Assembly (NCBI GenBank): GCA_009886115.1
Contig: VFJJ01000204.1
Span: 1-33,895 of the forward strand
Direction: 5' to 3'
Length of the DNA stretch: 33,895 nucleotides
Source of the DNA: Actinomycetota bacterium
GTDB taxonomy: Bacteria; Actinomycetota; Acidimicrobiia; IMCC26256; VFJJ01
Under the pieces are notes generated by a model. The model ran no database searches. It saw only the letters and a program-made list of their open reading frames with translations, and had not been told where the DNA came from. The translations under genes were made by a program, and so were the position numbers. This document shows, in pieces, positions 6,307 to 33,895 of this stretch (positions are counted from its first letter, which is position 1; each line of letters begins with the position of its first letter).

Positions 6307-6918
6307 TCAGCGGGGCTCGCGCCACATGGGCCACAGCGTCGGACCGGAGGGAACCTCGATGATTGCCTGCTCGACGAAGCCGAAGCGGCGGTAGAGCGGG
6401 AGGTTCGAGACGTTGCTCGACTCGAGGTAGGCGGGCAGGCCGTCGCCATCGAGCCGCTCGGCCATCGACGCGAGGAGGGCTGAGGCATGCCCCCGGCCAC
6501 GATGCCCGGGGTCGGTGCCGACGATCCGGAGATACCAGTGCGGCGGGTGGTGCGGATGAGCCTGTTCCATGAGCGCGCTGAGACGGCGGGCATGCGGGAG
6601 CCGGCGGCCCAGGAAGCGCCACGATCGCCAGGCCGCGGCCAGCGTCGGCCGCTCGGGAGCAGGACGGGGACCGTCAAGCGGAGGCAACCAGAGGGCGACG
6701 GCAGGACCGTGGCACCAGACCTCGCCTCGGGCGAGGTACCCGTGGATCTCGCCCCTCATGACGAGCGTGGCCTTGGCCAGACGCTTCCCGGGGCTCGGGA
6801 ACAGGTGGCACATGACCGGATCGTCGAAGAACGCCCGGGCCAGGAGGTCGGCCCGGGCCCCGACCTCGATCGGCCCCTCGAGTCGCTCGACACCCACGTC
6901 GCTCTCGTGATCGTCCAT
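6307..6918 (-). CDS. GNAT family N-acetyltransferase
   Basis: WYLRIVGTDPGHRGRGHAS acetyl-CoA motif and YLESSNVSNLPLYRRFGF. Confidence 0.9.
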   Translation of the reverse strand: MDDHESDVGVERLEGPIEVGARADLLARAFFDDPVMCHLFPSPGKRLAKATLVMRGEIHGYLARGEVWCHGPAVALWLPPLDGPRPAPERPTLAAAWRSWRFLGRRLPHARRLSALMEQAHPHHPPHWYLRIVGTDPGHRGRGHASALLASMAERLDGDGLPAYLESSNVSNLPLYRRFGFVEQAIIEVPSGPTLWPMWREPR

Positions 6919-6950
6919 GCCCCATCTTCATCCGAGACAGACTCACACGC

Positions 6951-7973
6951 ATGAGCGACACGGGAGTGGGCATCTCGGCGGTGACCCGCATCGAGGTCGA
7001 AGCGGCGGCGGCCCGGTTGGGCACCCGGCTGCGGCTCACCCCGGTCATCACGATCGAAGCGGGAACCTTCGGGCCCGGACCGGTGGTGGTGAAGCTCGAG
7101 AACCTCCAGCACACCGGGTCGTTCAAGGCGCGGGGGATGCTCAACGCGATGCTCGAGGCGACGGTCCCGCCGATCGGCGTCGTCGTGGCCTCGGGCGGCA
7201 ACGCCGGGCTGGCCGTGGCCTGGGCCGCTCGTGAGCTCGGCCACCGGGCCACCGTGTTCGTGCCCGTCACCAGCCCAGGGGCCAAGGTCGACCGCCTCCG
7301 GGCGCTGGGAGCGGCCGTGCACCAGCTGGGCGAGCGCTACGACGACGCGCTCGGTGCCAGCCAGACCTTCGCCGCCGAGACGGGGGCCGCGGTGATCCAC
7401 GCCTACGACCAGCGGCCCGTCGTCGCCGGCCAGGGGACGCTCTTCCGCGAGCTCGAGCACCAGACCGCCGGAGCCGCCGGGGCCGCCGGGGCGTCGGGCG
7501 CTGGCGGGCGCTCCGGGGCTGCGGACGGGCGCTCCGGCGCCGACCCCGGGATCGACACCGTGCTCGTGGCCGTCGGCGGCGGCGGGTTGATCGCGGGCGC
7601 GGCGGCCTGGTTCGCCGGACGGGTGAAGGTCGTCGCGGTCGAGCCCGAGACCTCGTGCTGTCTGCACGCGGCGTTCACCGCCGGCCATCCCATCGACGTC
7701 GACGTCAACGGGATCGCCGTCGATTCCTTGGGGGCCCGCCGGGTCGGCGAGGTGTGCTGGGCCGGGCGCGAGCACATCCAGACCACGCTGGTCGTCACCG
7801 ACGCGGCGATCGTCGCCGCTCGGCGGAGCCTCTGGGAGCACCTGCGAGTCGTCGCCGAGCCCGGTGGGGCCGCCGCGCTGGCCGCTCTCACCAGCGGCGT
7901 CTACCGCCCGTCTCCCGGCGAGCGCGTCGCGGTTCTCGTCTGCGGCGCCAACACCGACCCGGCCACGATCTGA
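6951..7973 (+). CDS. PLP-dependent threonine/serine dehydratase family protein
   Basis: KLENLQHTGSFKARG (PLP lysine), SGGNAG, VGGGGL, EPGGA and CGAN, with a Gly/Ala-rich insertion. Confidence 0.92.
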   Translation: MSDTGVGISAVTRIEVEAAAARLGTRLRLTPVITIEAGTFGPGPVVVKLENLQHTGSFKARGMLNAMLEATVPPIGVVVASGGNAGLAVAWAARELGHRATVFVPVTSPGAKVDRLRALGAAVHQLGERYDDALGASQTFAAETGAAVIHAYDQRPVVAGQGTLFRELEHQTAGAAGAAGASGAGGRSGAADGRSGADPGIDTVLVAVGGGGLIAGAAAWFAGRVKVVAVEPETSCCLHAAFTAGHPIDVDVNGIAVDSLGARRVGEVCWAGREHIQTTLVVTDAAIVAARRSLWEHLRVVAEPGGAAALAALTSGVYRPSPGERVAVLVCGANTDPATI

Positions 7974-8110
7974 CGCCCGTTCAGCGACACCGAGGCGCAC
8001 CGAGAGCGCGGGGCGGAACGGGCTGCGCTGCCAGCGACGCCCGGCGAGCCACCCCGGCGCCCCAAGGCGGGAGCCGGCTGCGAGAGCCGCCGCCGGGCTG
8101 GTTGACGCGT

Positions 8111-8119
8111 TGGTAGACT
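8111..8119 (+). promoter_or_regulatory. Extended -10 element (TGG-TAGACT) of a probably leaderless toxin-antitoxin transcript
   Basis: TANNNT ends 6 nt before ATG 8126, with no Shine-Dalgarno in between. Confidence 0.55.
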
Positions 8120-8125
8120 CAGCGC

Positions 8126-8362
8126 ATGACAACGACGCAAGTGGCTGTGCGGCTCCCGAGCGAGCTCCTCGAGAACATCGATGTCCTCGTGGGGATGTCG
8201 TTCGAGTCACGCTCCGACGTCATCCGGCAGGCGATCGAGCAGTTCCTGTACCGCCATGCTTGTGAGCGCGACGCCCGAATCTACGAGTTGACGCCGTTCA
8301 GCGATGCCGAGCTGGCCCTGGGTGAAGATCTCGAGTCGTGGAAGCTCACACCCGCGTGGTGA
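8126..8362 (+). CDS. Ribbon-helix-helix (CopG-type) antitoxin, MazE-like
   Basis: QVAVRLPSELLENID...SRSDVIRQAI RHH pattern, acidic C-terminus, overlaps the toxin start. Confidence 0.85.
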   Translation: MTTTQVAVRLPSELLENIDVLVGMSFESRSDVIRQAIEQFLYRHACERDARIYELTPFSDAELALGEDLESWKLTPAW

Positions 8363-8667
8363 GGGGTGAGGTCTGGTGGGCCACGGTGCCCGGTGGAGAG
8401 CGGCCGGTGCTCGTCCTCACCCGTGATCCCGTGGCCGACCGGATCGGCGCTGTGGTCGTCGCGGCGTGCACCCGAACGGTCAGGGGTGTGCACAGCGAGC
8501 TCGCGCTGGGGCCCGCCGACGGCATGCCCGAGGCCTGCGTCGCCAACTTCGACAACCTCCACACGGTGCGGCGCAGCGCGTTCCGAGAGCGGATCACCCA
8601 GCTCGGCGTGGAGCGCATGAGCGAGGCGTGTCGCGTCCTCGCCCACGCCCTGGCCTGCGTCGACTGA
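8359..8667 (+). CDS. mazF: PemK/MazF family endoribonuclease toxin
   Basis: RGEVWW...RPVLVLTRD...VVVAACTRTVRG..SE...CVANFDNL. GTGA overlap with the antitoxin stop (start 8359 or 8356). Confidence 0.88.
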   Translation: MRGEVWWATVPGGERPVLVLTRDPVADRIGAVVVAACTRTVRGVHSELALGPADGMPEACVANFDNLHTVRRSAFRERITQLGVERMSEACRVLAHALACVD

Positions 8668-8691: not shown

Positions 8692-9285
8692 TCAGACCGT
8701 GAGCGCGGCCACGATCTCGTCGAGGACGGCGGCGATGCGCTCGCTGCGCACCTCGACCGTCTCCTCGTAGTAATCGTTGGGGACCACCACGTAGCGCAGA
8801 TCGGGCAGGCCGAGCAGCCGAGCGTTCGCCGCCAACGCCGGCACGAACGGCGGGGTCACCAGCGTGACCGTCGGGATGCCCATGCGCTCCAGGTTCACGG
8901 CGTCGAGCACACTGCCCGACGTGCACGAACCTCATTTGGCGAGGCCGTTTACGACCCCCGAGCAGCTCCGCAGATGGGCGAGCAGCTCGTCGCCGGCGGG
9001 CCGTGACAGCACCGGCTTGCAGATCCGCGGCGAGTCGGCGAGGACGGCCGTCCCGTAGCGGCGCCGCAGCCCAGCCTCGATCTCGATCGTGTAGCCGTAG
9101 AAATCGGGTCCCTGCTGGCGGCTCTGCTCGTTCACCATGAAGCCGATCAGCCCGTCCATGGCGGGCATGCGCGGCGCCAGCCCGATGGAGGACTGCTCGC
9201 GCACCTGGCCTCGGGGATCGACGATCTCCATACGCCCCTTGGGCTCGACGTTCGCCACAACGTTTCGTTCCCCGGCGTCGCTCAT
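8692..9285 (-). CDS. UGSC-family candidate selenoprotein 1 (197 aa, in-frame TGA at 8932-8934 read as Sec118)
   Basis: ORFs 8932..9471 and 8692..8910 are in the same frame, joined by GCC AAA TGA GGT TCG TGC ACG (A-K-U-G-S-C-T). ATG 9285 overlaps the upstream stop (ATGA). A hairpin follows the UGA. Confidence 0.85.
8892..8931 (-). promoter_or_regulatory. Candidate bacterial SECIS hairpin directly 3' of the UGA
   Basis: GGUUCGUG-CA-CGUCGGGCA-(GUG)-UGCUCGACG-C-CGUGAACC: 8-bp and 9-bp stems including G-U pairs, with the loop G at +20 from the UGA. Confidence 0.65.
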
Positions 9286-10346
9286 GGTTCCTCGATCTCC
9301 CTCGTGACGGCGTAACCGCCGAGATGACCCCAACCTGGGCACACGACCGCCCACGGGATGCTGTCGGCGCCGCTGACCATGACGTGGATGGCCTCGGGCC
9401 GCTCGACGCAGGGGACGAGCGTGTCGTCGCTCGACTGGTCGACCCACGCGGGCCACCATTCGTACCACCACCGGGGATCGTTGTCGGGCCGGCGGGGCGA
9501 ACGCGGCCGGAGATCGCCGAGTCGCCGTCGGGCCAGCCGGAACAGCGTGTCCTGCACTGCGGTGCGGTCGAAACCGTGCCGTGCCAGGTGCCGCGCCTCC
9601 GACGGCGAGAACACCACGAGAGCCTCGCCCATGGTGTGGGCGTTGTTGTTGCCGAGCCCGGCGAGATGGTCGGCCACCTGGCCGAGGCGCTGCTCGGGAT
9701 CGTCGCCCACTCCCCAGAACGACACGCTCTGCGGGCTCTCACACGCGAACACCAAGACTGCGCTCCGGCCGGCACCGGCGCCCGCCATCGACGGCCAAGG
9801 CGTGTTGTCGGGCTCCTCGGCGATGCAGAACGCCAGCCGCCCGGGATGGCCGAAGACCTCTTTCACCGGATCGCCCGGCCGAGCACCACCCAGGTTCCAG
9901 AGCACGAGCTTGACCGCCCGACCGATGGCCACGTTGGCCCGGGCACCACCGCCGCTGAACACCGACTCTGTGGTGGCCATCCCAAGCCGGCCGACGGCCG
10001 GCCCCGACACGATCACGAGGGGCCAGCAGCCGTGGGTGGTGCAGGCCACGCCCCTGAGGTTGAAGCGCTCGTCGAGCATGGCCTCGATCGCCGCGACCAC
10101 GACCGGCATGTGCTCGGGCAGGCAGCCGGCCATGGCGGCGTTGGCCGCGACGGCCTCCACGGTGGCAATCCCGTTCCGAGGGGGAACGAGCCCGATCTCG
10201 GCGTGGGCTTCCCGGCCCGTCGCCGCGACCAGTGCATCGACGATGGCCCGGTCGGGCGCGAACGTGGGAAGCCCGTCGGTGAGGCCCAGTCGGTACGAGA
10301 GCTCGGTCCACGCCCCCGGCTCGATCGTCGACGGGAGACCGTCCAT
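9282..10346 (-). CDS. Conserved hypothetical 'DGLP' protein, partner of UGSC protein 1
   Basis: GLTDGLPTFAP, TVEAVAANAAMAGC, IGRAVKLVLWNLGG and FGHPGR; clear paralog of 27563..28618. Start 10346 has a GGGAG RBS; alternatives are 10370 and 10388. Confidence 0.85.
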   Translation of the reverse strand: MDGLPSTIEPGAWTELSYRLGLTDGLPTFAPDRAIVDALVAATGREAHAEIGLVPPRNGIATVEAVAANAAMAGCLPEHMPVVVAAIEAMLDERFNLRGVACTTHGCWPLVIVSGPAVGRLGMATTESVFSGGGARANVAIGRAVKLVLWNLGGARPGDPVKEVFGHPGRLAFCIAEEPDNTPWPSMAGAGAGRSAVLVFACESPQSVSFWGVGDDPEQRLGQVADHLAGLGNNNAHTMGEALVVFSPSEARHLARHGFDRTAVQDTLFRLARRRLGDLRPRSPRRPDNDPRWWYEWWPAWVDQSSDDTLVPCVERPEAIHVMVSGADSIPWAVVCPGWGHLGGYAVTREIEEP

Positions 10347-10405
10347 GGTTGCTCCCGGTCCCTCGGGCATGACGGTGCGAGTGTCCATTGAGTAGAACCT
10401 CGCTC

Positions 10406-14763: not shown

Positions 14764-15858
14764 TCAGTGGTGGACCCGCTCCATCGTCCGATGGGCTGCG
14801 GGCAAGCCCACGACCATCCGACAACCCTGCGGGGTGTTGCGTTCAGCACGGATCGAACCGCCGTGGAGATCGACGATCCACCGGGCGATGGCCAAGCCCA
14901 GGCCGGCACCTCCGCTCGCGGAGGCCCGGGCGGCATCGGCGCGATAGAAGCGCTCGAACACCCGGTCGGCGTCGTCGTCGGCGATCCCCGGGCCTTCGTC
15001 GCACACCTCGAAGACCACCGACGATCCCGGCTCGTCGCGCCGGGCCCGGAGGACCACCGGCCGGCCCGACGGCGTGTGCCGGAGTGCATTCTCGAGCAGG
15101 TTGGCCACCACCTGATGGATCCGCTCGGGATCGCCGTCGGTCGCCAGGCCCGTCCCGGCCACCTCGGGGGTGACTTCGAGCGTGACCTCGACGTCGGTCG
15201 TGTGGAGCCTGGCCTCGGCCGCGGCGTCCTCGAGCACGGCCATCAGATCGAAGGCGCAGCGTTGCAGGGGCACGGCGCCCGACTCGAGCTTCGACAGGTC
15301 GAGGAGCTGCCGCACCAGCCGGCCCAGGCGCTCGACCTGCTTGAGCATCGTCCGCAGCGTGTCGGGAGCTGGCGGCTCGACACCGTCGACGAGGTTCTCG
15401 AGCACGACCTGGAGCGCCGAGATCGGCGTGCGCAGCTCGTGCGACACGTTGGCAACCAGGTCGCGCCGCATCCGATCGACCTCGGCGAGCTCGGCGGCCA
15501 TGGCGTTGAACGCCCGGGCCAGCTCGCCCACCTCGTCGCGCGAGGTCGTCTCGACCCGGCGTCCGTAGTCGCCCTTGGCCATGGCCCGGGCGGCCTCAGC
15601 CATGTCGCGCAACGGGGTGGTGACCCCCCGCACGAGCAGCCGCACGAACACCAGCGCCACAACCATCGCCAGCAAGCCAGCCACCGACGGCCACACGTCG
15701 AGCCAGCGGATGGCGGCCCAGAACACGAAGACCGTGCTCGAGGTCGAGGCGAAGACGGCGGCCCCGATCTTCCACTTGAGCGTGGGCAACGGATCGAGCG
15801 GACGATCGCCGATCTCCTTGAGCCGCTCACGGTCGAGCTCAACCCCGCGTACCTTCAC
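14764..15858 (-). CDS. HAMP-domain sensor histidine kinase
   Basis: Two TM segments, HAMP (DEVGELARAFN), SHELRTP, NLLENA, DEGPGI and GAGLGLAI. Confidence 0.95.
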   Translation of the reverse strand: MKVRGVELDRERLKEIGDRPLDPLPTLKWKIGAAVFASTSSTVFVFWAAIRWLDVWPSVAGLLAMVVALVFVRLLVRGVTTPLRDMAEAARAMAKGDYGRRVETTSRDEVGELARAFNAMAAELAEVDRMRRDLVANVSHELRTPISALQVVLENLVDGVEPPAPDTLRTMLKQVERLGRLVRQLLDLSKLESGAVPLQRCAFDLMAVLEDAAAEARLHTTDVEVTLEVTPEVAGTGLATDGDPERIHQVVANLLENALRHTPSGRPVVLRARRDEPGSSVVFEVCDEGPGIADDDADRVFERFYRADAARASASGGAGLGLAIARWIVDLHGGSIRAERNTPQGCRMVVGLPAAHRTMERVHH

Positions 15859-16643
15859 CGGCTCGCGTCCTTCGCTGGCGATGCTCCGTCACGAGCCTCG
15901 AGGCGCTGCTCGACGGCGTAGCCGACCCCGTGGACCGTCCGGATCACCATCGCGCCCACCTTGCGGCGGATGGCCTGCACGTGCGAGTCGACGGTGCGGG
16001 CACCCGAACCGTCGCGGTAGCCCCACACCTCGGCGAGCAACTGCTCCCGGGTGTACACGACGCCAGGGCGCCGGGCCAGGAAGTGCAGGAGGTCGAACTC
16101 CAATGGGGTGAGGTGCACCACCTCGCCGGCCTGACGGACCCTCCGGGCGGCCGGGTCGATCTCGACATCGCCGATGCGGCGGACGGGCGCGTGCGGCGTG
16201 GCGTCGAGCCCGTCTGCGGTTCCTGCGGTTGCGCGGTCGGCGTCGAGCCGGGCTCGGGACCGCTCGTCGCGGCGCAGGATCGCCTGCACCCGGGCCACGA
16301 GCTCCCGGGCCCGGAACGGCTTGGTCATGTAGTCGTCGGCGCCGACCGCGAGCCCCACGACCAGATCTGTCTCGCTGTCGCGGGCGGTCAGCATGAGCAC
16401 CGGCACGGGCTGGTCGCGTTGGATGCGCCGGCACACTTCCAGGCCGTCGAAGCCCGGCAGCATCACGTCGAGCACCACGAGATCGGGGTGCAATCGCTCG
16501 CAGGCCGCCACCGCCGACGGCCCGTCACCGGCGATCTCGACGGCGTAACCCTCGCTGCGCAGGCGCGCCGCGACCGCCGAAGCGATCGACGGTTCGTCCT
16601 CGACCACGAGAATCGTCCGCACAGGCGTTTGGAGCGCAGCCAC
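15855..16643 (-). CDS. OmpR/PhoB-family response regulator
   Basis: VVEDE, LDVMLP, LTAR, GADDYMTKPF and winged helix (RTVDSHV, IRTVHGVGY). GTG 16643 lies 6 nt after a TATCCT -10 box. Confidence 0.95.
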   Translation of the reverse strand: MAALQTPVRTILVVEDEPSIASAVAARLRSEGYAVEIAGDGPSAVAACERLHPDLVVLDVMLPGFDGLEVCRRIQRDQPVPVLMLTARDSETDLVVGLAVGADDYMTKPFRARELVARVQAILRRDERSRARLDADRATAGTADGLDATPHAPVRRIGDVEIDPAARRVRQAGEVVHLTPLEFDLLHFLARRPGVVYTREQLLAEVWGYRDGSGARTVDSHVQAIRRKVGAMVIRTVHGVGYAVEQRLEARDGASPAKDASR

Positions 16644-16718
16644 ACAGCCAGGATAAGGACGCGATGCGGAGGAGTCCGCTCCAGGATGCGGAGATTTCGC
16701 GGTTTTCTCGGCTCGCAG

Positions 16719-16755
16719 GTCGCAGTTTCCGCGACCTGGTCGCGGAAACTGCGAC
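16719..16755. terminator. Perfect inverted repeat with 18-bp arms (terminator or REP-like)
   Basis: GTCGCAGTTTCCGCGACC-T-GGTCGCGGAAACTGCGAC, 26 nt downstream of the lipoprotein stop. No adjacent U-tract. Confidence 0.55.
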
Positions 16756-16781
16756 ATGCCCGGGTGGTTGGGACCGAGCCG

Positions 16782-18161
16782 CTACTCCTTGACGAGCGTG
16801 CCGGCCTCGTCGAGCACCCACCACACGTTGCCGACGGCCTGGCCTTTCACGTCGCCACGGACCTGGTCGGCAGCGAAGTAGTACAGCGGCCAGTCGTTGT
16901 AGGTGACCTGGAGCTGGCCGTCGGTGCGCTCGACCGAGCCGATGAGGTCCTGGTCGAGACCGGGACCGGCGAAGACCGCCGGGTCGGTCAGGAACGGGGG
17001 CCAGGTCTCGGCACAGGCGTCGTAGCAGGCCGGCGTGGGCAGGTTGGGCTTCTCGGCCTCGAAGGCGTACACGGTGAGCCCCTGGTAGTCGGTGATGATC
17101 GTGCCCAGCGAGGTCTCGTCGAGCAGGATGCTCGAGTTGGCCGTGGGGACGGCGGTCCCGCCCGGCTGCGACGTGATCACGGGAGCGTTGGGGCCTGCGG
17201 GCTTGCCGGCGCTGTCGACGACGAACCACTTCTGCCCGACGCCCTGACCCGTCGTGTCGCCGGGTGCCTGGTCGCCGCCGAAGAAGTACAGGGGCCACGA
17301 GTTGTAGGTGACCTGCGTGCCGCCGTCGGGATGGGCCACGGTGCCGAGCAGCGACGTGTCGATCCCGGCGCCGGCCGTCGAGGTCTCGGTGTCGCCGCCG
17401 GACGTGGCCAGGAGCAGCGGGGGCCAGTTGACGGCGCAGGTCCCGGTGCAGGTGGGCGTGGGCCGGCCGGCTTCATCACCAAGGAACAGGTAGAGCGTGT
17501 GCCCGTCAGGGGCCCCGGTGAGCACGTCGCCGATCGCGGTGCTGGCCACCGAGACCGTTGCCGCCCCCGCTCCGGGCGCGGCGTCGAGGATCGGCGTGCC
17601 GGCCGGATCGATCACGTGCCAGACCCCGCCGACACCCTGGCCGAGCACATCACCCTTGGCGGCGTCGGCCGCGAAGTGATACAGGGGTCGGCCGAAATAG
17701 GTGACCTGCGTGCCACCGTCGGCCCGGGTGATGGTGGCCAGCTTGGTGGCGTCGATGCTCCCGGCGGCGATCGGCGATCCGGCGGCCAACACAGGCGGCC
17801 AGTTGACCGCACATTGGTCGGCGCAGTTCGACACCCCGTCGGTGTCGTTGTCGAACACGTACAGCGTGCGCCCGTCGCGGTTGGCGACGATCGATCCGAA
17901 CGGCGAGTCGACCGTGGTGATCGTGGCCCCGGCATCGGGGTCGACGGGAACCGTGGCCACCGGCGCCGTGGTATCGACTGCCGCGCCGGCCGGCGGCCCG
18001 GTCGCCGTGGTGGTCGCGTTGTCGGGCTCGTCGGCGGAACCCACGACGCTGTCGCCGCCGCACGCGGCAACGGTCAGCGCCAAGGCGCCGAACAGCGCCA
18101 GGAACTGAAGCTGGAGCCTCGTGCGCCGCTCGGGCATCGATGACTTCAAGGACACTGACAT
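16782..18161 (-). CDS. Secreted repeat lipoprotein (COG4315 / Lipoprotein_15-like, Yx[FWY]xxD motif) with three tandem domains
   Basis: Lipobox LTVAA-C, then three copies of G.T(L/V)Y.F...CxxxCA..WPP...DG..QVTY...PLY.F..D...GD..GQ.VG..W.V. Confidence 0.88.
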   Translation of the reverse strand: MSVSLKSSMPERRTRLQLQFLALFGALALTVAACGGDSVVGSADEPDNATTTATGPPAGAAVDTTAPVATVPVDPDAGATITTVDSPFGSIVANRDGRTLYVFDNDTDGVSNCADQCAVNWPPVLAAGSPIAAGSIDATKLATITRADGGTQVTYFGRPLYHFAADAAKGDVLGQGVGGVWHVIDPAGTPILDAAPGAGAATVSVASTAIGDVLTGAPDGHTLYLFLGDEAGRPTPTCTGTCAVNWPPLLLATSGGDTETSTAGAGIDTSLLGTVAHPDGGTQVTYNSWPLYFFGGDQAPGDTTGQGVGQKWFVVDSAGKPAGPNAPVITSQPGGTAVPTANSSILLDETSLGTIITDYQGLTVYAFEAEKPNLPTPACYDACAETWPPFLTDPAVFAGPGLDQDLIGSVERTDGQLQVTYNDWPLYYFAADQVRGDVKGQAVGNVWWVLDEAGTLVKE

Positions 18162-18224
18162 CGGGCTCTCCCTCGTTTGCGTGATGCCGGGGATACGGAT
18201 CGGGAGCGGTCGGCGTTCAATCGG

Positions 18225-18833
18225 TCAGAACGCCGGGAACTCGATGTTGGCGAACCACCAGGCCGATGACGTGGCCCAGACCACCACGAGGGTCGTGAAG
18301 GTGATGCTCCCGACGAGCGGCAGCGTCCAGCCCGGGAGTCGCTTGCTGCGCAGCGCCAGCATCTTGGTGGCGAAGACACCGTAGAACAGGCACCCGAACA
18401 CCGAGTGGGCGGCCCGGCGGAGATCGCCCTCGCCGTCGCCGCTCTTGGTGTTGAAGCCGATCGACCAGAGGCAGTGGTACGCCACCGGGATCGAGAGAAC
18501 GAAGGCGACGGTCCCCGACCAGCGGTGCGCGGCCCCGATCCACTTCGGCGCCTTGGCCTTCACGCCGGGGAGCTTGCCCCACATCCACAGGGCCGATGCA
18601 ACCTGGAACAGGGCGGCCAGGAAGGCCAACGTGCCCAACCACACCTTCATGCTCACCATGGCGCTCGTGACGTCGGTGCCCGAGAAGCCCAGCTTGAAGA
18701 TCTCGCGCCCCGACGGGTCGTGGTTGGCGCCCCACACACCGAGCAGGACGGCCAGCGCGGCGCCGATCCCGAAGATCAACAGCATCTCGGTGCTCTTGGG
18801 GGGCGACTGCGGAGTTGCGGTGGGGGCGGCCAT
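18225..18833 (-). CDS. Multi-pass membrane protein with intramembrane His residues (DUF6529-like)
   Basis: AAGGAG RBS, about 5 hydrophobic helices, motifs SMKVWL, HRWSG, AYHCL, HSVFGCLFYG.F..K and WATSSAWWF. Confidence 0.75.
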   Translation of the reverse strand: MAAPTATPQSPPKSTEMLLIFGIGAALAVLLGVWGANHDPSGREIFKLGFSGTDVTSAMVSMKVWLGTLAFLAALFQVASALWMWGKLPGVKAKAPKWIGAAHRWSGTVAFVLSIPVAYHCLWSIGFNTKSGDGEGDLRRAAHSVFGCLFYGVFATKMLALRSKRLPGWTLPLVGSITFTTLVVVWATSSAWWFANIEFPAF

Positions 18834-18969
18834 CGAGTGTCTCCTTGCGGTGGGTCCCGGCACGCGGGAGCATGGTCGATCACGGTGTACGGAGCAAGTG
18901 CCGTCGGCGTTCAGCGAAAAACTCCCGGGCCCGATGAACCATGGGGCTCCCCGTTCCGTAGGAAGGTCC

Positions 18970-19341
18970 ATGAAAAAGCTCACGCCGACCCTCGCCATCT
19001 GTTCTACGGCCTTCCTCGTGGCTGTCGTCTCGGCCGGCGTCGGTTGGGGCGCCGGGAAGGGGACGACGGTCTACGGCGGCGCCGACACCATCGGGATCGC
19101 CGGATTCGTCTACGGACCCGACCCCCTGATCGTCACGCCAGGCTTCACCGTGAACGTGAACAACGGTGACGGCGTCCCGCATTCGGTCTCGGCCGACGAC
19201 GGGAGCTTCAACAGCGGGATACTCGGCGCCAACGCGAAGGGCTCGTTCGTAGCCCCCACCGCACCCGGCGCGTACACGTACTTCTGCGAGGTGCACCCCG
19301 GCGACAGCCGGATGCACGGCACGCTCCAGGTCAGCGGCTGA
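18970..19341 (+). CDS. Secreted cupredoxin (plastocyanin-like blue copper protein)
   Basis: Signal peptide MKKL..., N.DGVPHSV and YTYFCEVHPGDSRMHG give the type-1 copper ligands H, C, H, M. Confidence 0.88.
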   Translation: MKKLTPTLAICSTAFLVAVVSAGVGWGAGKGTTVYGGADTIGIAGFVYGPDPLIVTPGFTVNVNNGDGVPHSVSADDGSFNSGILGANAKGSFVAPTAPGAYTYFCEVHPGDSRMHGTLQVSG

Positions 19342-26069: not shown

Positions 26070-27329
26070 CTATCCCTGTCTGCTGGGCGGCCGCCAGAGC
26101 GTGCTGATGGGAAGGGCCCAGATTCGGTCGTCGATCTCGAAGGGCAGCCCCCCGCTGTAGAGCAGCGCTCCGAACCTGAAGGTGTCTCCGATCCGGTCGC
26201 GGAGCCACATCAGCCCTCTGGCATCGCCCCGATCGACGCTGGTGGATGACTTGACCTCGACGCCGACGATCGCACCTGGGCGCTCGAGAACGATGTCAAC
26301 CTCTTTCCCGTCACGATCGCGAAGGTGAAAAAGGGCGGTGTTGACGGCGACGGTTTCGATGTACGTGAGCAGCTCTGACACAACGAACGTCTCGAAGAGT
26401 TGCCCCACGAGCGCGACGTCGCGTCCCAGTGTCTGGTCGTCGACGTTGAGGAGGTGCGCTGCCATTCCGGGATCGACCACATGAATCTTCGGGGACCGCG
26501 TGAGACGGTGAAGGCGTGTGGTGTGCCAGGCCGGCACACGTGCGATGACCGACAGGTCTTCCAGCAACCCGAGATAGGCGTCCGCGGTACGGAAATCGAC
26601 GGACGCGTCATTGGCTGTCGCTTGCTTGTTGAGCTCCTGACCTGTCCGCGCGACGCTCGATTCGAGAACTGCTCGCAGCTTCGTCCCCGCGATCGTTCGC
26701 CCAGAGATCTGCGATGCATCGCGTTCGATGAGCTGTTCGACGTAGGCCCCGAACCACCGGCCGCGGTTGCGCCCACGCAGCTTCTGCACCGCGGGAAACC
26801 GTCCGGCAACGATCATCGAGAGGTAATCGTTGCGACGATATTCCGACTGCTGAAAACGCTGACGACCCGGCTCGAAGATGGCATCGATGGGGTTGTAGTC
26901 GTCGCGCCGTTCTCGCTCGGCCTGGGTCAGGCCGAGCATGCGGACCCGAATGAGGCGACCGGTGCCCGGCCAGGTTGCTGCCTGGTGGGCGGCGCGAACG
27001 GAACCCGTGACGATGAACCGTCCAACCCGGCCCGCCCGGTCGCCATCCACGGCGCGCTTGATCGCGCCGAGGATCTCCGGGACCTCCTGCCACTCGTCCA
27101 CCAGAACGGTGCCCTTCGACGTAGCCAGAATCCCGTCGGGGTCTTCCGACGCGGCGAGGCGAGTCCCAGGTTCGGAGAGATCGATCACGGTGTCAGCGAA
27201 CTGGGTCATCGAGGTCGACTTCCCGCAGCCGCGAGGGCCGACGACCATGATCGCCGGGAAAGCCGGCAGGAGCTCGTTGGCGATCAACCGATCGATGCTG
27301 CGGGGATAGAGCTTCTCAGGCATCGACAC
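26070..27329 (-). CDS. AAA_14-type ATPase with C-terminal DUF4143 (PD-(D/E)xK-like) domain
   Basis: GPRGCGKST Walker A, VDEWQ Walker B, TGS, PKIHVVDPG, FETFV..EL and EVDIV...EVKS. Confidence 0.9.
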   Translation of the reverse strand: MSMPEKLYPRSIDRLIANELLPAFPAIMVVGPRGCGKSTSMTQFADTVIDLSEPGTRLAASEDPDGILATSKGTVLVDEWQEVPEILGAIKRAVDGDRAGRVGRFIVTGSVRAAHQAATWPGTGRLIRVRMLGLTQAERERRDDYNPIDAIFEPGRQRFQQSEYRRNDYLSMIVAGRFPAVQKLRGRNRGRWFGAYVEQLIERDASQISGRTIAGTKLRAVLESSVARTGQELNKQATANDASVDFRTADAYLGLLEDLSVIARVPAWHTTRLHRLTRSPKIHVVDPGMAAHLLNVDDQTLGRDVALVGQLFETFVVSELLTYIETVAVNTALFHLRDRDGKEVDIVLERPGAIVGVEVKSSTSVDRGDARGLMWLRDRIGDTFRFGALLYSGGLPFEIDDRIWALPISTLWRPPSRQG

Positions 27330-27426
27330 ACCACGGCGATGGCGCGATGAGGGTGCGACAGTTACGAATCATCGTCACCCTCGATCAACGAGCACGCTCT
27401 GGTACATGATCTGCCGAGCATACAAG

Positions 27427-27486
27427 CCAGTGATTGTCGGACTATGAATCCAGTGATTGCCGGACCTCGAATCCAGTGATTGCCGA
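27427..27486. repeat. About 2.6 direct repeats with 23-bp period (core CCAGTGATTG) upstream of the ATPase gene
   Basis: Copies start at 27427, 27450 and 27473. Confidence 0.8.
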
Positions 27487-27562
27487 GCGTGAGAACTCGC
27501 CAGCTTCCAACGCCTCACCCCCGAACGCGCCCCCGACGCCTTGAGCCGTCAGGGGCGGTGCA

Positions 27563-28618
27563 TCAGAACCCTCGAGTGACGGCTTGGGTGTTGCCCCAGC
27601 TGTGGATGGCGGCCGAGTGGAGGTTCCCGAGACCGCCGCACACCATCACCAGCACCGAGGCCGGGCGTTGGGCCAGGTGCACACGACCGTCGGTCGCGAC
27701 CCGGCCGGCGTCGGTGAGCGCCCGCTGATGGGCCGGCGGCCACCACTCGAGCGGGAGGCTGGCGTGTCGGTGGAGCAGCTCCTGCACATCGTCGATCGCG
27801 GGGACGTCGCGCCCGATGATCTCGGCCCACATCGGGTTGATGCAGACCAGGAACTCACTGTCGGGGCAGGCGACGAGGTAGCCGTTGGTGCCCATGGAAG
27901 CGACGGACTTCCCGATGATCTCCAGCAACTCGGTTCCGGTGGTGGCCACGGTGTCGCAGATGTTGGCCGTCCCCATGGCGCCGAACACGGTGACGGCGTC
28001 GCCGCGCACACCGCGTCGAACGGCGAGCGGTGCCCAGGGCGACCGGTCCTCCCATTCGCCGACCACGACGCCCGTCACCCGGCCGGGCTGGCCGAACACC
28101 GACTGCGATGTCGTCCCCACCACGTGCCCGGCGACGTTGCGCATCACGAGTCGCAGCGCTCGCCCGATCGCCGGCGCGGGGCCGGCCACGCCACCGAAGC
28201 AGCCGGCCCGGTACGGGACCCCCAGCCGGTCGCGGACCGGCCCGTTGACGAACACCGCTGGTACGACCGATCCCGTGGTGGCGTTGAGCCCGGCCAGGTC
28301 AAAGGTCGGCTCGACCATGGCTTCGAGCGCCGCGCACAGCAACGGCATGGCGTCGGAAGGCGCGCCGGCCATCACCGCATTGACGGCGAGGGCCTCGACG
28401 GTGCACACCCCGTTCGCCGGTGGGAGCACGGCCACGACGTCGTCGGACCGGCGTGTGGAGCCGGCCAGCATCGCCAGCACCCGCTCCTGCGTCGGGGGCA
28501 CCAGCGGCAGCCCGTCGCCCCAGCCCTGCTCGGCCGCGAACTCGGTGAACCCGACGACGTCGAGATCGACCTCGACCCGCTCGGCGCGGAGCACCGCGTC
28601 GGCCGCGGAGTCGGTCAC
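27563..28618 (-). CDS. Conserved hypothetical 'DGLP' protein, partner of UGSC protein 2
   Basis: GWGDGLPLVPPT, TVEALAVNAVMAG, IGRALRLVMRNVAG and FGQPGR. GTG start overlaps the upstream TGA. Confidence 0.88.
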   Translation of the reverse strand: MTDSAADAVLRAERVEVDLDVVGFTEFAAEQGWGDGLPLVPPTQERVLAMLAGSTRRSDDVVAVLPPANGVCTVEALAVNAVMAGAPSDAMPLLCAALEAMVEPTFDLAGLNATTGSVVPAVFVNGPVRDRLGVPYRAGCFGGVAGPAPAIGRALRLVMRNVAGHVVGTTSQSVFGQPGRVTGVVVGEWEDRSPWAPLAVRRGVRGDAVTVFGAMGTANICDTVATTGTELLEIIGKSVASMGTNGYLVACPDSEFLVCINPMWAEIIGRDVPAIDDVQELLHRHASLPLEWWPPAHQRALTDAGRVATDGRVHLAQRPASVLVMVCGGLGNLHSAAIHSWGNTQAVTRGF

Positions 28619-29169
28619 GGTGTCACTCCCAGGCTGCGCAAGAGCTCGGGCAGGAACCTCGCGGCGATCATGCGCACCTCGGTCTCGGGCTGGGTGTCGA
28701 GGGGATACGGCAAGATGACCAAGGGCAGCTGCGCTCGTCCGGCGCTGGCCGCCAGGGTCTCGCCCAGAGCCCGGAACTGCTCCGTGCAGACGGCGACCGC
28801 CGCCTTGTGCCCGTCGACCACGGCGAGAGCGTCGTGGATCGTCCAGGCCGTGCAGGAGCCTCAGTTGGCCAGGCCCACCACGGCCAGGTCGACGCCGGCC
28901 ACGAACTCGACGAGCTCACGCTCCATGCGCCGACCCTCGTCGCCGCTGCGCGACCCGGTCCGCCAGCGGACGATCTCGGCGCCCCGGGCCTCGAGCTCGG
29001 CCGACCAGACCTCGCCGATCCAGTCCCACGACCGCCACATGTGGTCGAGCCTGAGCCCGACCTTCAGGCCCGACAGGTCGACGCCGACGGTCGACGTTGG
29101 TGCCGCGGCGCCGGCGGGAGCGACCGATCGAGTAGCGGCTACCGGGCTGAGGATGAGACCTCTCGTCAT
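28615..29169 (-). CDS. UGSC-family candidate selenoprotein 2 (184 aa, in-frame TGA at 28861-28863 read as Sec103)
   Basis: ORFs 28861..29313 and 28615..28821 are in the same frame, joined by GCC AAC TGA GGC TCC TGC ACG (A-N-U-G-S-C-T). GAGGGAG RBS before ATG 29169. Confidence 0.85.
28819..28860 (-). promoter_or_regulatory. Weaker candidate SECIS hairpin 3' of the second UGA
   Basis: CACGGC/GCCGUG lower stem and UGGA-(CGA)-UCCA upper stem. The loop is at +20..+22, the same offset as in locus 1. Confidence 0.4.
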
Positions 29170-29336
29170 CGCGCACTCCCTCGTTGGGGACCCCGACACC
29201 TGCCGAGGCCGTACAGAGCGTATCGGCCCTGATCGGACGAACTCCCGGTGCGGGAGCGGCAGCGGGTGGTGTGGAACCATGGGGCGTCCCCCCACGAGCC
29301 CAGTCGTTCCCACGCGACCGTCGACGGAGCACTCCC

Positions 29337-30563
29337 ATGGAATTCGGCATCTTCCTCAACGGCTACATCCCGGGGCCGGGGGCCCACGACACCGAGTGGG
29401 AGCACACCAAGCTCATGCGCGAGGCGAAGTACACGATCTTCGCCGACAAGCACAACTGGAAGTATGCCTGGTTCGGTGAGCACCACGCCCTCGTCGAATA
29501 CAGCCACATGTCGGCCCCTGAAGTCGTGATGGGCTATGTCGCGGGCCACACCGATTACATCCACCTCTCGTCAGGGATCAACAGCCTTTCTCCCCGCAAG
29601 GAGCACCCGGTTCGCTACGCCGAGCGGGCCGCCATGCTCGACCACGTCACGAACCGACGGTACGAGTGGGGAACCGGGCGCGGGGCCGGGAGCCACGAGA
29701 TGGCCAGCTTCAACATCATGGACAAGGACTCGACCAAGCCCGAATGGGAAGAGGTCGTCCGCGAGATCCCGCGGATGTGGGAGCAGGTCGACTACACCCA
29801 CCACGGCAAGCACTTCACGGTTCCGACGCCCCACAACATCCTCCCCAAGCCCTACGGCCCCGGCCATCCCCCGATCTGGGTCGCGTGCGGGAACCCGCCC
29901 ACGTTCGCCCGGGCCGGCGAGCTCGGCATCGGCGCCATCGCGTTCAACTTCGAACCCATCTACAACCTGCGGGGTCGGGTCGAGGCCTACAAGGAAGCCA
30001 TTGCCAACTGCACCGAGCCGCTCGGGCAGTTCATCAACGACAACCTGATGATGACCAACGGCGTTATCTGCCTGGAAGATCGCGAGCGGGCGCGTGCACT
30101 CGCGTTCGATCGGGTGAGTGGTTACCTCGTCACGATGGTGAACCTCTACCACGACACGATGCCGAAGTCACCCGATGCGATCACCTGGCCGAGCGCCCCG
30201 ATCCGCCTGCGCGACCTCGCTGGCAACGACCCCGACGCCTTCCTCGACTCGCTCATCGAGGGCGGCTACATGATGGTCGGCAACCCGGAAGAGGTCTCGA
30301 AGCAGCTCGAGAGCTACAAGACGGTCGGCTGCGACCAGCTCGTGTTCGGCATCCCGGGCGACCTCCACGACGACGAGGTGCTCGAGATGATCGAGCTCTT
30401 CGGCGACCGGGTCATCCCCGAGCACGACCCCGACCGGGTGCACTCCACCGACCGCTACCGGGCCACCGCCAAGCCCAAGTACGACAGGTTCTCGGCTCCG
30501 CTGCCCGAAGGCGTCGAATGGCCGACCGTCCTCCCCGTCACCGCCACCGGTGCCACCCCCTGA
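29337..30563 (+). CDS. LLM-class (luciferase-like) flavin-dependent oxidoreductase
   Basis: MEFGIF, WFGEHH..EYSH..APE, HPVRYAERAAMLD, GTGRG and PKP....HPPIWVA. Confidence 0.92.
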   Translation: MEFGIFLNGYIPGPGAHDTEWEHTKLMREAKYTIFADKHNWKYAWFGEHHALVEYSHMSAPEVVMGYVAGHTDYIHLSSGINSLSPRKEHPVRYAERAAMLDHVTNRRYEWGTGRGAGSHEMASFNIMDKDSTKPEWEEVVREIPRMWEQVDYTHHGKHFTVPTPHNILPKPYGPGHPPIWVACGNPPTFARAGELGIGAIAFNFEPIYNLRGRVEAYKEAIANCTEPLGQFINDNLMMTNGVICLEDRERARALAFDRVSGYLVTMVNLYHDTMPKSPDAITWPSAPIRLRDLAGNDPDAFLDSLIEGGYMMVGNPEEVSKQLESYKTVGCDQLVFGIPGDLHDDEVLEMIELFGDRVIPEHDPDRVHSTDRYRATAKPKYDRFSAPLPEGVEWPTVLPVTATGATP

Positions 30564-31891: not shown

Positions 31892-32764
31892 GTGCCCATC
31901 GAAGCCTGGCAGAACCTGGGGTTCACCGATCCGGCGATGCTGGGGCCACTGGCGCGCCTGGCCGAGGAGCTGGGCTTCGCCGGTGTGAGCCTGCCCGAGC
32001 ATCTCGCGACGCCCGAGACGATCGTCACGCCCAACCCGTACGTTCCCGGCGGCGGTTCGGGGTATGCGCCCGACACCCCGTTCCCCGACCCCTGGGTCAC
32101 CTTCGGGGCGTTGGCCGCGGTCACCGAGCGCCTTCGCTTCGTTGCCAACGTGTCGATACTGGCGCTGCGGCCGCTCGTGGTGGCGGCCAAGGCCATCTCG
32201 ACGGCGGCCGTCCTCTCGCAGAACCGGGTCGTGCTCGGCGTGGGTGTCGGCTGGCTGCGCGAGGAGTTCGAGGCCCTGGGCGTCGACTTCCGCACCCGGG
32301 GCAGACGCACCGACGAGATGCTCATGTTGTTGCCCCGCTTGCTCCGCGGCGAGATCGTGAGTGCCGACGACGAGTTCCACCGGTTCGCGGCGCTGTCGAT
32401 CTCGCCCGTCCCCGACCGAGCCCTGCCCGTGCTGGTGGGCGGGGTCAGTGACGCCGCGCTGGCCCGGGCCGCCCGGGTCGACGGGTGGATCGGTGTGAAC
32501 TTCGAGCCTGAGGTGCTCCTGCCCATCCTCGACCGGCTCGCAAGCGCCCGCAACGAGGCCGGGACGGCGGCGCGCCCGTTCACGATCATGGTCTCGCGTC
32601 CGCCCACGTTCTCGAACAAGGTGGCCCGGGCCTACGAGGCAGCCGGCGTCACCGCGATCGTCAACCGTCCCACGGGTTTCAGTGTCGGAACCGATGTCGA
32701 TATCGACGCCAGCCTCGACGCCCACCGGCGCGTCATGGAGGAGTTCCAGACCCTGCTCGCGTGA
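31892..32764 (+). CDS. LLM-class oxidoreductase, probably F420-dependent
   Basis: AEELGF..V.LPEH, PDPWV...ALAAVT, R..LGVGVGWLREEFEALG..F..RG.R.DE and VGG.S.AAL.RAAR.DGW. Confidence 0.88.
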   Translation: MPIEAWQNLGFTDPAMLGPLARLAEELGFAGVSLPEHLATPETIVTPNPYVPGGGSGYAPDTPFPDPWVTFGALAAVTERLRFVANVSILALRPLVVAAKAISTAAVLSQNRVVLGVGVGWLREEFEALGVDFRTRGRRTDEMLMLLPRLLRGEIVSADDEFHRFAALSISPVPDRALPVLVGGVSDAALARAARVDGWIGVNFEPEVLLPILDRLASARNEAGTAARPFTIMVSRPPTFSNKVARAYEAAGVTAIVNRPTGFSVGTDVDIDASLDAHRRVMEEFQTLLA

Positions 32765-32791: not shown

Positions 32792-33778
32792 TCAAGCGCC
32801 GAGCACCGCAGGACGGACGACCGAGTCGAAGAGCTCGAGGCTCTCCCAGGCCAGCTCGGGTGACAGGCCGCCCATGAGCGGATGGAAGATCAGGTTGGCG
32901 TCGTCGGGCAGGGAGCGCCACAGCTCGATGCACGCCTCCGGCGTGACGACCGCGTGCATGCCGTAGGCGCGCAGGGCGTCGGCGTCGGTCATCGGCACGA
33001 AGCCCGTCTCGGTGCCGGACTCGGCCGCCCAGCGCCCGTACTCGTTCATCTCGTGCAGCGCGTGGGGCGCGATGCGCGCCCAGGCCGCGTCGGGGTCGTT
33101 GGCCACGTGCACGAAGAGCGGACCCGACGGGTTGTCGTAACGGGGGGTCTTGCCCAGCCGGGCGCACTCGTCCTCGTACACCTGCCTGATGGCGGGCTCG
33201 GGCGTCATGGCCATGAATCCGTCGGCCAGACGAGCTGCTCGGCGGGCGGTGGCCGCGGCGCCCCCGCCCACCAACACCGGCGGACGGGGTTGCTGCACGG
33301 GGGCCGGGGTCACCCGGAACGTGGCTCCCCGATAGGTGACCGGCTCACCGGTGAGCGCCGCCGTGTACACCGGGATCTTCTCCTCGATGAGCGCCACGCG
33401 GTCGGCCATGTCGAGGCCCAGCATGGCGAACTCGGCTGGCACGTACCCGAGGCCGATCGCGACTTCGACCCGTCCGTTCGAGATCTGATCGACGATCAGC
33501 GTGTCTTCGGCAGCGCGGATGGGATCGAGCAGCGGGAGGATCAACGCCCCGACACGGATGCGGGTTCGTTCGGTACGCGCCGCGACCGCAGCAGCCAAGA
33601 CCAGCGCGGACGGGAGGTAGCCGTCGGCCGAGCCGTGGTGCTCGGAGATCGTGATGCTGTCGACGCCTCGAGCGTCGGCCCACGCGCACTGCTCCAGCGC
33701 AGCCCGATACAGCGCCGGGGCCGGCGGACCGAACGCCGGCGCCCGCATGTCGTACCGCACGATCCACCGCTTCGACAT
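32792..33778 (-). CDS. LLM-class flavin-dependent oxidoreductase
   Basis: RYDMRAP, SEHHGSADGYLPS, AAVAART, DPIRAAED..D.ISNGR, GLGY and VGG..AARRAAR. Confidence 0.9.
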   Translation of the reverse strand: MSKRWIVRYDMRAPAFGPPAPALYRAALEQCAWADARGVDSITISEHHGSADGYLPSALVLAAAVAARTERTRIRVGALILPLLDPIRAAEDTLIVDQISNGRVEVAIGLGYVPAEFAMLGLDMADRVALIEEKIPVYTAALTGEPVTYRGATFRVTPAPVQQPRPPVLVGGGAAATARRAARLADGFMAMTPEPAIRQVYEDECARLGKTPRYDNPSGPLFVHVANDPDAAWARIAPHALHEMNEYGRWAAESGTETGFVPMTDADALRAYGMHAVVTPEACIELWRSLPDDANLIFHPLMGGLSPELAWESLELFDSVVRPAVLGA

Positions 33779-33819
33779 GATCTCTCTCCCGCTCACTCTC
33801 GGTTCCGACCGGCACTGCC

Positions 33820-33895
33820 GCTCACTGCTCACTGCTCACTGCTCACTGCTCACTGCTCACTGCTCACTGCTCACTGCTCACTGCTCACTGCTCAC
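33820..33895. repeat. Perfect 7-bp tandem repeat (GCTCACT)n, about 11 copies, running to the window end
   Basis: Read directly. One further GCTCACT at 33791. Confidence 0.95.

Follow-up and report, generated by a model that had tools for sequence, protein, structure and literature searches.

UGSC2, a probable selenoprotein gene paired with an Unknown_1-family gene in an actinobacterial contig

The UGSC family, its occurrence in selenocysteine (Sec) and cysteine (Cys) forms and its fusion to a protein termed Unknown_1 are already in print (2005/2008). In the sections of their paper drawn on here, Zhang and Gladyshev (2008; PMC2398784) described the UGSC/Unknown_1 fusion and proposed a thioredoxin (Trx)-like fold for UGSC, and the excerpts used of Peng et al. 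(2016; PMC5029168) give counts of 26 and 33 UGSC-containing proteins in sequenced bacteria and state that some Actinobacteria use Sec. Here we describe UGSC2, a gene on the minus strand of a 33,895-base contig of an Actinomycetota bacterium (VFJJ01000204.1, assembly GCA_009886115.1; the whole stretch analysed is hereafter called the window), whose reading frame runs through an in-frame TGA at the U position of the UGSC motif. Very probably UGSC2 is a functional UGSC-family selenoprotein gene, in which the UGA at codon 103 is read as Sec and whose product is proposed to act in a redox complex with the Unknown_1-type protein encoded beside it (partner2).

UGSC2 contains one in-frame TGA only, in the context ...VGLAN-U-GSCTAWT, and its ATG at 29169 agrees with the N-terminus MxxGxVLDPT of the family in a 38-member alignment (A2). 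Peptides quoted from the gene in an earlier note on this DNA were all recovered on the minus strand (DLAVVGLAN-U-GSCTAWTIHDALAVV, VCTEQF and LDHMWRSWDW). The translation matched Pfam PF24696 with 100.2 bits (cutoff 25), residues 7–181 aligning to positions 3–171 of the 172-position profile. Its U-G-S-C falls on four columns, C103, G104, S105 and C106, that are invariant in alignment A2, and the same alignment showed the motifs WRSWDW, VGLANCGSCTxWT and LPYPL to be characteristic of the UGSC2 subfamily. UGSC2 falls within the broad Pfam family and outside the narrower NCBIfam equivalog NF041046. Set against the family as described by Zhang and Gladyshev and captured by these profiles, it is alike in its full-length PF24696 match, its U-G-S-C column and its association with Unknown_1; it differs in scoring below the NF041046 cutoff, in a flavodoxin-like structural model as opposed to the proposed Trx-like fold, and in its high-GC actinobacterial host. 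The hairpin downstream of its TGA is also unlike that of other TGA-bearing UGSC members.

Homologs of UGSC2 carried Cys at the position of the TGA in the great majority of cases. A word-indexed search returned 130 homologs at E<=0.001, and among the best 120 of these, which were examined, 118 possessed the N-C-G-S-C motif and were full length. The other two end just before the motif: one is the window's own 102-residue fragment and the other a 103-residue predicted protein (P0108) that terminates at ...VVGLAN. HMMER, run exhaustively against 1.84 billion representatives of clusters at 50 % identity, gave 372 matches at E<=0.001, the best 150 of which were aligned. In these 150 the U column was occupied by Cys in 117 and by another residue in six (G in three; A, T and S in one each), ten sequences terminated exactly before it, and 17 were gapped or fragmentary. 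When the 102-residue fragment itself was used as the query, it recovered P0108 (74 % identity), P0395 (78 %) and P0396 (50 %), all terminating at ...DLAVVGLAN; these three predicted proteins, as well as P0282 and P0284, stop exactly at ...VVGLAN or ...VVGLGN. A tblastn search of plasmids with a Cys-form protein of UGSC2 type (P0005) gave three distant matches, and the WRSWDW subfamily was absent among them. Atlas entries carried nothing beyond automatic names ('thiol-disulfide oxidoreductase family'), taken here as a lead.

The earlier note had proposed a phylogeny with the Sec/Cys state mapped onto it. We built such a tree from 102 rows, comprising 92 representatives (the 150 less 58 fragments), five TGA forms verified in DNA and five Cys forms from plasmids; among the close orthologs, none had a sense codon other than Cys at the TGA column. 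The deepest division separated the family into two halves with a Shimodaira–Hasegawa-like approximate likelihood ratio test (SH-aLRT) support of 98. UGSC2 was sister to its counterpart on another contig, locus L001, with a support of 99, and the pair fell within a group of 11 rows (support only 80) made up of seven sequences that end before the column, two Sec rows and two Cys rows. The second UGSC gene of the window (UGSC1, or paralog 1) lay in the opposite half of the tree together with TGA forms from Paracoccus and Acidovorax. At least seven changes between Sec-like and Cys states were required on this tree.

L001 (contig JANLSK010000228.1), the nearest ortholog in public data and the only locus yielded by a scan of genome contigs, bears on how the TGA is read. 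Were the codon a true stop, UGSC2 would be a pseudogene or would encode a truncated protein of 102 residues, and the 81 codons downstream would be untranslated. The L001 protein is 76 % identical to UGSC2, the corresponding codon of its gene is likewise TGA (L001 6310–6312), and its stop is overlapped by the same partner gene as in the window. The 102 codons before the TGA comprised 53 identical, 22 synonymous and 27 non-synonymous ones between the two loci; the 81 after it comprised 49, 15 and 17, respectively, with no indels or frame breaks. Depending on the method, the ratio of non-synonymous to synonymous substitution rates (dN/dS) was 0.07–0.26 upstream and 0.18–0.42 downstream, all values being below 1 and all drawn from small samples. 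That the TGA and the whole frame beyond it have been kept in this way argues against a true stop, as do three further features: the segment GSCTAWTIHDA following the TGA is identical in the window and L001 and fits the invariant family motif, the start of partner2 overlaps the far stop at 28615–28617 and not the internal TGA, and coding-type composition, with a GC content at third codon positions (GC3) of 0.92, persists beyond the TGA. The combination looked for in a selenoprotein gene, a UGA aligned with Cys in homologs and a constrained frame downstream of it, was thus present. With the full-length PF24696 match, the Cys of the homologs and the retention of TGA and frame in L001, the proposal in the earlier note of a UGSC-family selenoprotein gene hidden by a TGA is supported.

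The earlier note had also argued that a TGA at the same motif position in two paralogs was not a random nonsense mutation, and a scan of the window in six frames agreed with it. When coding-type composition was demanded in the 150 nt on each side of an in-frame TGA (GC3 >0.84; GC content at second codon positions <0.62), only the TGAs of UGSC2 and paralog 1 passed in the 33,895 bases, and the orthologous TGA of L001 passed as well. UGSC1 contains NEQSRQQGPDFYGY and has its TGA in the context ...NGLAK-U-GSCTSGS. At 29 % identity over 169 residues (E=2e-6), it and UGSC2 were correctly called distant paralogs. The word 'divergent', also applied to UGSC2, is misleading, as UGSC2 is no outlier and sits in a large, tightly conserved subfamily.

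The neighbouring gene partner2 belongs to the same family as the Unknown_1 alignment in Fig. S1A of PMC2398784. It had no match in Pfam or NCBIfam, and a Pfam search at E<=1 on 37 members of the partner family gave scattered single chance matches only. The family itself is large: among 8000 candidates scored, at least 2975 homologs of partner2 were found at E<=0.001, typically about 60 % identical, with occurrences in Acidimicrobiia, sphingomonads and Rhodospirillales. Its link to UGSC is direct in a natural fusion of 578 amino acids (P0199), which joins a Cys-form UGSC to a partner. A tblastn search of plasmids with the partner matched 24 records, and in seven of the nine loci examined among these a UGSC gene adjoined the partner gene. 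Cys-form UGSC genes stood beside the partner on plasmids of Arthrobacter, Embleya, Roseovarius, Natrinema and Variovorax, and TGA-form genes on Paracoccus versutus pTAV4 (L005) and Acidovorax sp. T1 p2-T1 (L006). A two-gene module, with UGSC adjacent or fused to Unknown_1, was therefore seen in both UGSC loci of the window, in L001, on plasmids and in P0199.

Three of the plasmid loci deserve separate mention. On Sporomusa termitida pSPTER (L002, 2308–4032), the UGSC domain of a fusion is degenerate, matching PF24696 weakly (28 bits) and lacking the CxxC (ALGDMGTSS), and on Vibrio europaeus pVEu (L010, 2374–4059) a partner-family protein carries an N-terminal extension; both genes adjoin genes for aconitase X and DUF126. 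On the Acidovorax plasmid, RefSeq annotates a 97-amino-acid 'hypothetical protein' (NZ_CP021650.1, 2452–2742) whose stop is the TGA of ITGSGD-U-GSCTSWSV, and the remaining part of UGSC and the partner are missing from the PLSDB gene table. This entry looks like a mis-annotated selenoprotein gene.

UGSC1 likewise adjoins a partner gene (partner1), whose product is 33 % identical to that of partner2 (E=1e-30). As each UGSC gene thus stands beside its own partner paralog, the window holds two UGSC/partner cassettes, with opposite gene order. The earlier note had suggested, from the differing N-terminal halves of the two UGSC proteins, that they may differ in specificity; to this can be added the separate partner paralogs and the different cysteines that these keep. 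Of 37 aligned partner-family members, 36 share the Cys at position 140 of partner2 and only partner1 departs from it, with Val. The position of the C in the motif 'MAGC' is Cys in only five of the 37, partner1 among them, and Ala in partner2. Cassette 1 therefore combines Cys at MAGC with Val140, cassette 2 Ala with Cys140, so the two cassettes differ in which candidate redox Cys is retained. Paralog 1 and the Paracoccus and Acidovorax genes resemble UGSC2 in having a TGA at the same motif column and an adjoining Unknown_1-family gene; they are unlike it in lying across the deepest split of the tree and in possessing a GUG-loop hairpin of their own.

Structural models were used to consider how the two proteins might work together. 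The AF2 model of UGSC2 had a predicted local distance difference test score (pLDDT) of 87.9 and showed a five-stranded domain of alternating beta strands and alpha helices, with U103 beginning helix 104–119. Its best fold matches in the PDB were azoreductase, NQO1 and flavodoxin-type domains with template modelling (TM) scores of 0.4–0.5, and the fold, as modelled, is flavodoxin-like. A Trx fold was rejected, as no thioredoxin-fold protein was among the PDB matches listed for the AF2 model. Partner2 was modelled with a pLDDT of 89.9 and had no convincing PDB fold match; kinship with class I fumarate hydratase was considered and not accepted, the TM scores being merely 0.25–0.29. Profile searches of PDB sequences gave zero matches for the UGSC profile and one chance-level match (a lipocalin, E=1.6) for that of the partner.

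To model a complex, we split the natural fusion P0199 into its two domains and used them as separate chains, with self-made alignments drawn from the database only. The model scored 0.63, the best of three controls scoring 0.00, and binding was thus predicted. This level was attained by 116 of 157 solved complexes and by two of 215 mismatched pairs, a calibration that is rough owing to the self-made alignments. Contact agreement between runs was at least 96 %, and the partner had a pLDDT of at least 84. The confident interface places residues 1–10 of UGSC, the MxxGxVLDPT tail, against the GDGLPxxPPT region of the partner and nearby conserved segments. In the literature on UGSC and on selenoproteins, which was surveyed in part, we found no mention of a non-Trx fold, of tail docking or of the loss of the hairpin in one clade.

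These results suggest a working model for the UGSC2 cassette. The SelB/tRNA-Sec pathway would decode the UGA at codon 103 as Sec, setting the redox motif U-G-S-C at the N-terminal end of helix 3 in a five-stranded alpha/beta domain of predicted flavodoxin-like fold. Translation of UGSC2 is probably coupled to that of partner2 through the GTGA overlap, and the two proteins may form a complex in which the conserved N-terminal tail of UGSC docks on the GDGLPxxPPT region of the partner. The selenol/thiol pair would then switch between its reduced form and a selenenylsulfide, in support of a reaction taking place on the partner. In sum, UGSC2 and partner2 probably form a selenol/thiol redox module. 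In relatives, the likely source of electrons is the thioredoxin system, trxB or trxA being found in the cluster at three of the nine plasmid loci (L003, L007 and L009).

GrdA, GrdB and PrdB of the glycine and D-proline reductases are selenoproteins coupled to thioredoxin. The likeness to UGSC lies in the pairing of a Sec-containing redox subunit of UxxC type with a separate catalytic subunit, and in the clustering of trxB or trxA at the three loci above. The difference is that searches by sequence and by fold linked neither UGSC2 nor its partner to these proteins. We therefore regard the parallel as an analogy of organization only.

The case for Sec insertion depends in part on the RNA downstream of the UGA. 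The hairpin typical of the family spans 19 nt (nt 15–33 counted from the U of the UGA) and has eight pairs and a 3-nt GUG loop. It was common to paralog 1, L005 and L006, with folding energies (dG) of -10.7 to -12.6 kcal/mol, and two of its pairs were compensatory, both sides having changed between paralog 1 and L005/L006. The UGSC1 hairpin was equalled in stability by only five of 500 synonymous resamplings; L005, despite its clear GUG hairpin, failed the same comparison (425 of 500 as low), which indicates that total folding energy is a poor discriminator here. The strong hairpin after the UGA of UGSC1 argues that the organism has Sec decoding of SelB type. For UGSC2 we considered two candidate Sec insertion sequence (SECIS) elements, a longer hairpin (A) and the remnant of the family hairpin (B). 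Hairpin A had a dG of -19.1 kcal/mol in the window and -23.3 kcal/mol in L001, and all four substitutions between the two loci fell at unpaired positions.

Several results weigh against the interpretation of UGSC2 as the Sec-containing half of a redox complex, and they concern the RNA, the decoding machinery, a family cutoff and the proposed complex. The canonical element is degraded, hairpin B retaining six of eight pairs in UGSC2 (dG -1.7 kcal/mol) and five of eight in L001 (-2.0 kcal/mol). Hairpin A was equalled or bettered by 44 of 200 dinucleotide shuffles in the window (z -0.79) and by 24 of 200 in L001 (z -1.23), and energies as low were reached in 336 of 500 and 94 of 500 synonymous-codon resamplings, respectively; in a sequence of 70 % GC, it is no more stable than the controls. 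In the window its apical loop reads CUCU, without a G, and covariation is invisible, as only two near-identical sequences were compared. Rfam gave zero matches at the gathering score across the whole window, and at E<=10 three chance-level matches, none to a SECIS family, in 28700–28950. ARAGORN detected no tRNA, and no tRNA-Sec, in the 34-kb window, and no selA, selB or selD was recognizable among the 27 open reading frames (ORFs) of the window scanned with Pfam. Against NF041046, with its curated threshold of 125 bits, UGSC2 scored 58.5 bits over the C-terminal 98 residues only; this model was matched by every one of the 38 A2 sequences, at a best E-value of only 2.7e-22. As to the complex, the model was made from a homolog, the Cys-form fusion P0199, and so from proteins other than those of the window, the redox motif lay outside its confident contacts, and UGSC2 has LILSPV in its tail where the family consensus is VLDPT. 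Finally, neither trxA nor trxB was found near UGSC2 among the window ORFs with Pfam.

With the family hairpin mostly lost and no Sec machinery seen in the window, read-through of UGSC2 stands as an inference from the comparative evidence. The same results are what speaks for a true stop at codon 103: no canonical SECIS, the family-typical hairpin degraded, hairpin A indistinguishable from background and the Sec machinery unseen, to which may be added that public gene calls predict proteins of 97–105 residues terminating here. Against the conserved frame beyond the TGA in L001, we nonetheless judge a true stop to be improbable. Some known bacterial selenoprotein genes deviate from the consensus SECIS model, according to the part of PMC9312934 considered.

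Decoding of the UGA as Sec has also to be weighed against its decoding as a standard amino acid. Near-cognate or suppressor decoding could insert Cys or Trp and give CGSC or WGSC, without selenium. A convincing SECIS is wanting in the UGSC2 clade, Cys forms are functional across the family and the Sec machinery of the organism was unseen, all of which would fit such decoding. TGA is, however, a normal stop in this DNA, ending 23 of the 27 window genes, UGSC2 itself included, which shows that the genetic code is not changed here and makes efficient generic read-through unlikely. Use of both Sec and Cys in the family is moreover documented, Table 2 of PMC2398784 counting 255 Sec-containing and 21 Cys-containing members in GOS. 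A one-base change of TGA to TGC or TGT would yield Cys, yet TGA persists across diverged lineages, and a strong, canonical-looking hairpin follows the UGA of paralog 1. Decoding as a standard amino acid is thus very unlikely, and Sec remains the reading we prefer. An assembly or sequencing error in place of a true TGC or TGT, for which a single-base difference would suffice in a window that is possibly metagenome-assembled, is extremely unlikely, as the same TGA is present in the independent assembly of L001, at least five further distinct predicted proteins stop at the same position, and the second paralog in the window shows the same feature.

Table 1. Positions of the UGSC and partner genes of the window and of the elements discussed for UGSC2
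Feature	Coordinates	Strand	Details
UGSC2	28615..29169	minus	ATG at 29169, terminal TGA at 28617..28615; 184 sense codons including the proposed Sec103
In-frame TGA, proposed Sec codon 103	28861..28863	minus	U of the UGSC motif; from the translation, aligned with invariant C103 (A2)
Shine-Dalgarno-like GAGGGAG	29176..29182	minus	6 nt 5' of the UGSC2 ATG; read from the sequence
Candidate SECIS A	28809..28848	minus	40-nt hairpin; nt 16–55 from the U of the UGA, apical loop at nt 35–38
Candidate SECIS B	28831..28849	minus	Remnant of the family hairpin; nt 15–33 after the UGA, loop CGA and not GUG
partner2	27563..28618	minus	351 amino acids, 'Unknown_1' family; begins at a GTG overlapping the stop of UGSC2 (GTGA)
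UGSC1 (paralog 1)	8692..9285	minus	TGA at 8934..8932; clean GUG-loop hairpin directly 3' of it, starting 2 nt beyond the UGA
partner1	9282..10388	minus	368 amino acids; upstream of UGSC1, ATGA overlap

The surroundings of the UGSC2 cassette were partly conserved. Common to the window and L001 are a divergent luciferase-like monooxygenase gene, an APH-type kinase gene and a molybdopterin hydroxylase gene, and this context offers no clear clue to a substrate. Luciferase-like monooxygenase genes (PF00296) were found at 29337–30563, 31892–32764 and 32792–33832 in the window and at 2–784, 826–1779 and 4578–5816 in L001; these clusters flank the cassette in both, one gene being divergent from UGSC2. 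Between partner2 and the APH-like gene, the window has a gene for an AAA_14/DUF4143 ATPase (26070–27329, minus strand). It is absent from the syntenic site in L001, where the partner gene (6555–7622) is immediately followed by the APH gene (7630–8529), and it is possibly an insertion. A scan of 27250–29450 for promoters and terminators gave no match. Elsewhere in the window, a gene of the PemK/MazF-like toxin family (8338–8667, plus strand; PF02452, E=7e-12) is convergent with UGSC1, and a minus-strand segment at 14764–18998 encodes a two-component system of a HAMP/HisKA kinase and an OmpR-type regulator, then a six-repeat Lipoprotein_15 protein and a DUF6529 protein.

Standard gene callers split or truncate UGSC2, and public predictions of its relatives terminate at the proposed Sec codon. 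Recognition of UGSC2 corrects this annotation and extends a selenoprotein family, known chiefly from metagenomes of aquatic origin, by one member from an actinobacterium. Its degraded canonical hairpin poses a small and concrete question, that of SelB recognition of its mRNA, and the two complete UGSC/partner cassettes, with their differing cysteines and an interface model, offer a practical start for the biochemistry of the family. A broader proposal, which we put forward tentatively and with some doubt, is that UGSC and Unknown_1 may constitute a widespread two-subunit selenol/thiol enzyme of bacteria and haloarchaea, with a catalytic subunit whose fold has no solved relative and a redox subunit tethered by its tail and fed by thioredoxin in some lineages, and that the UGSC2 clade may have exchanged the ancestral GUG-loop SECIS for a differently placed hairpin. 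If this were true, it would mean that SECIS elements have turned over between paralogs sharing one genome.

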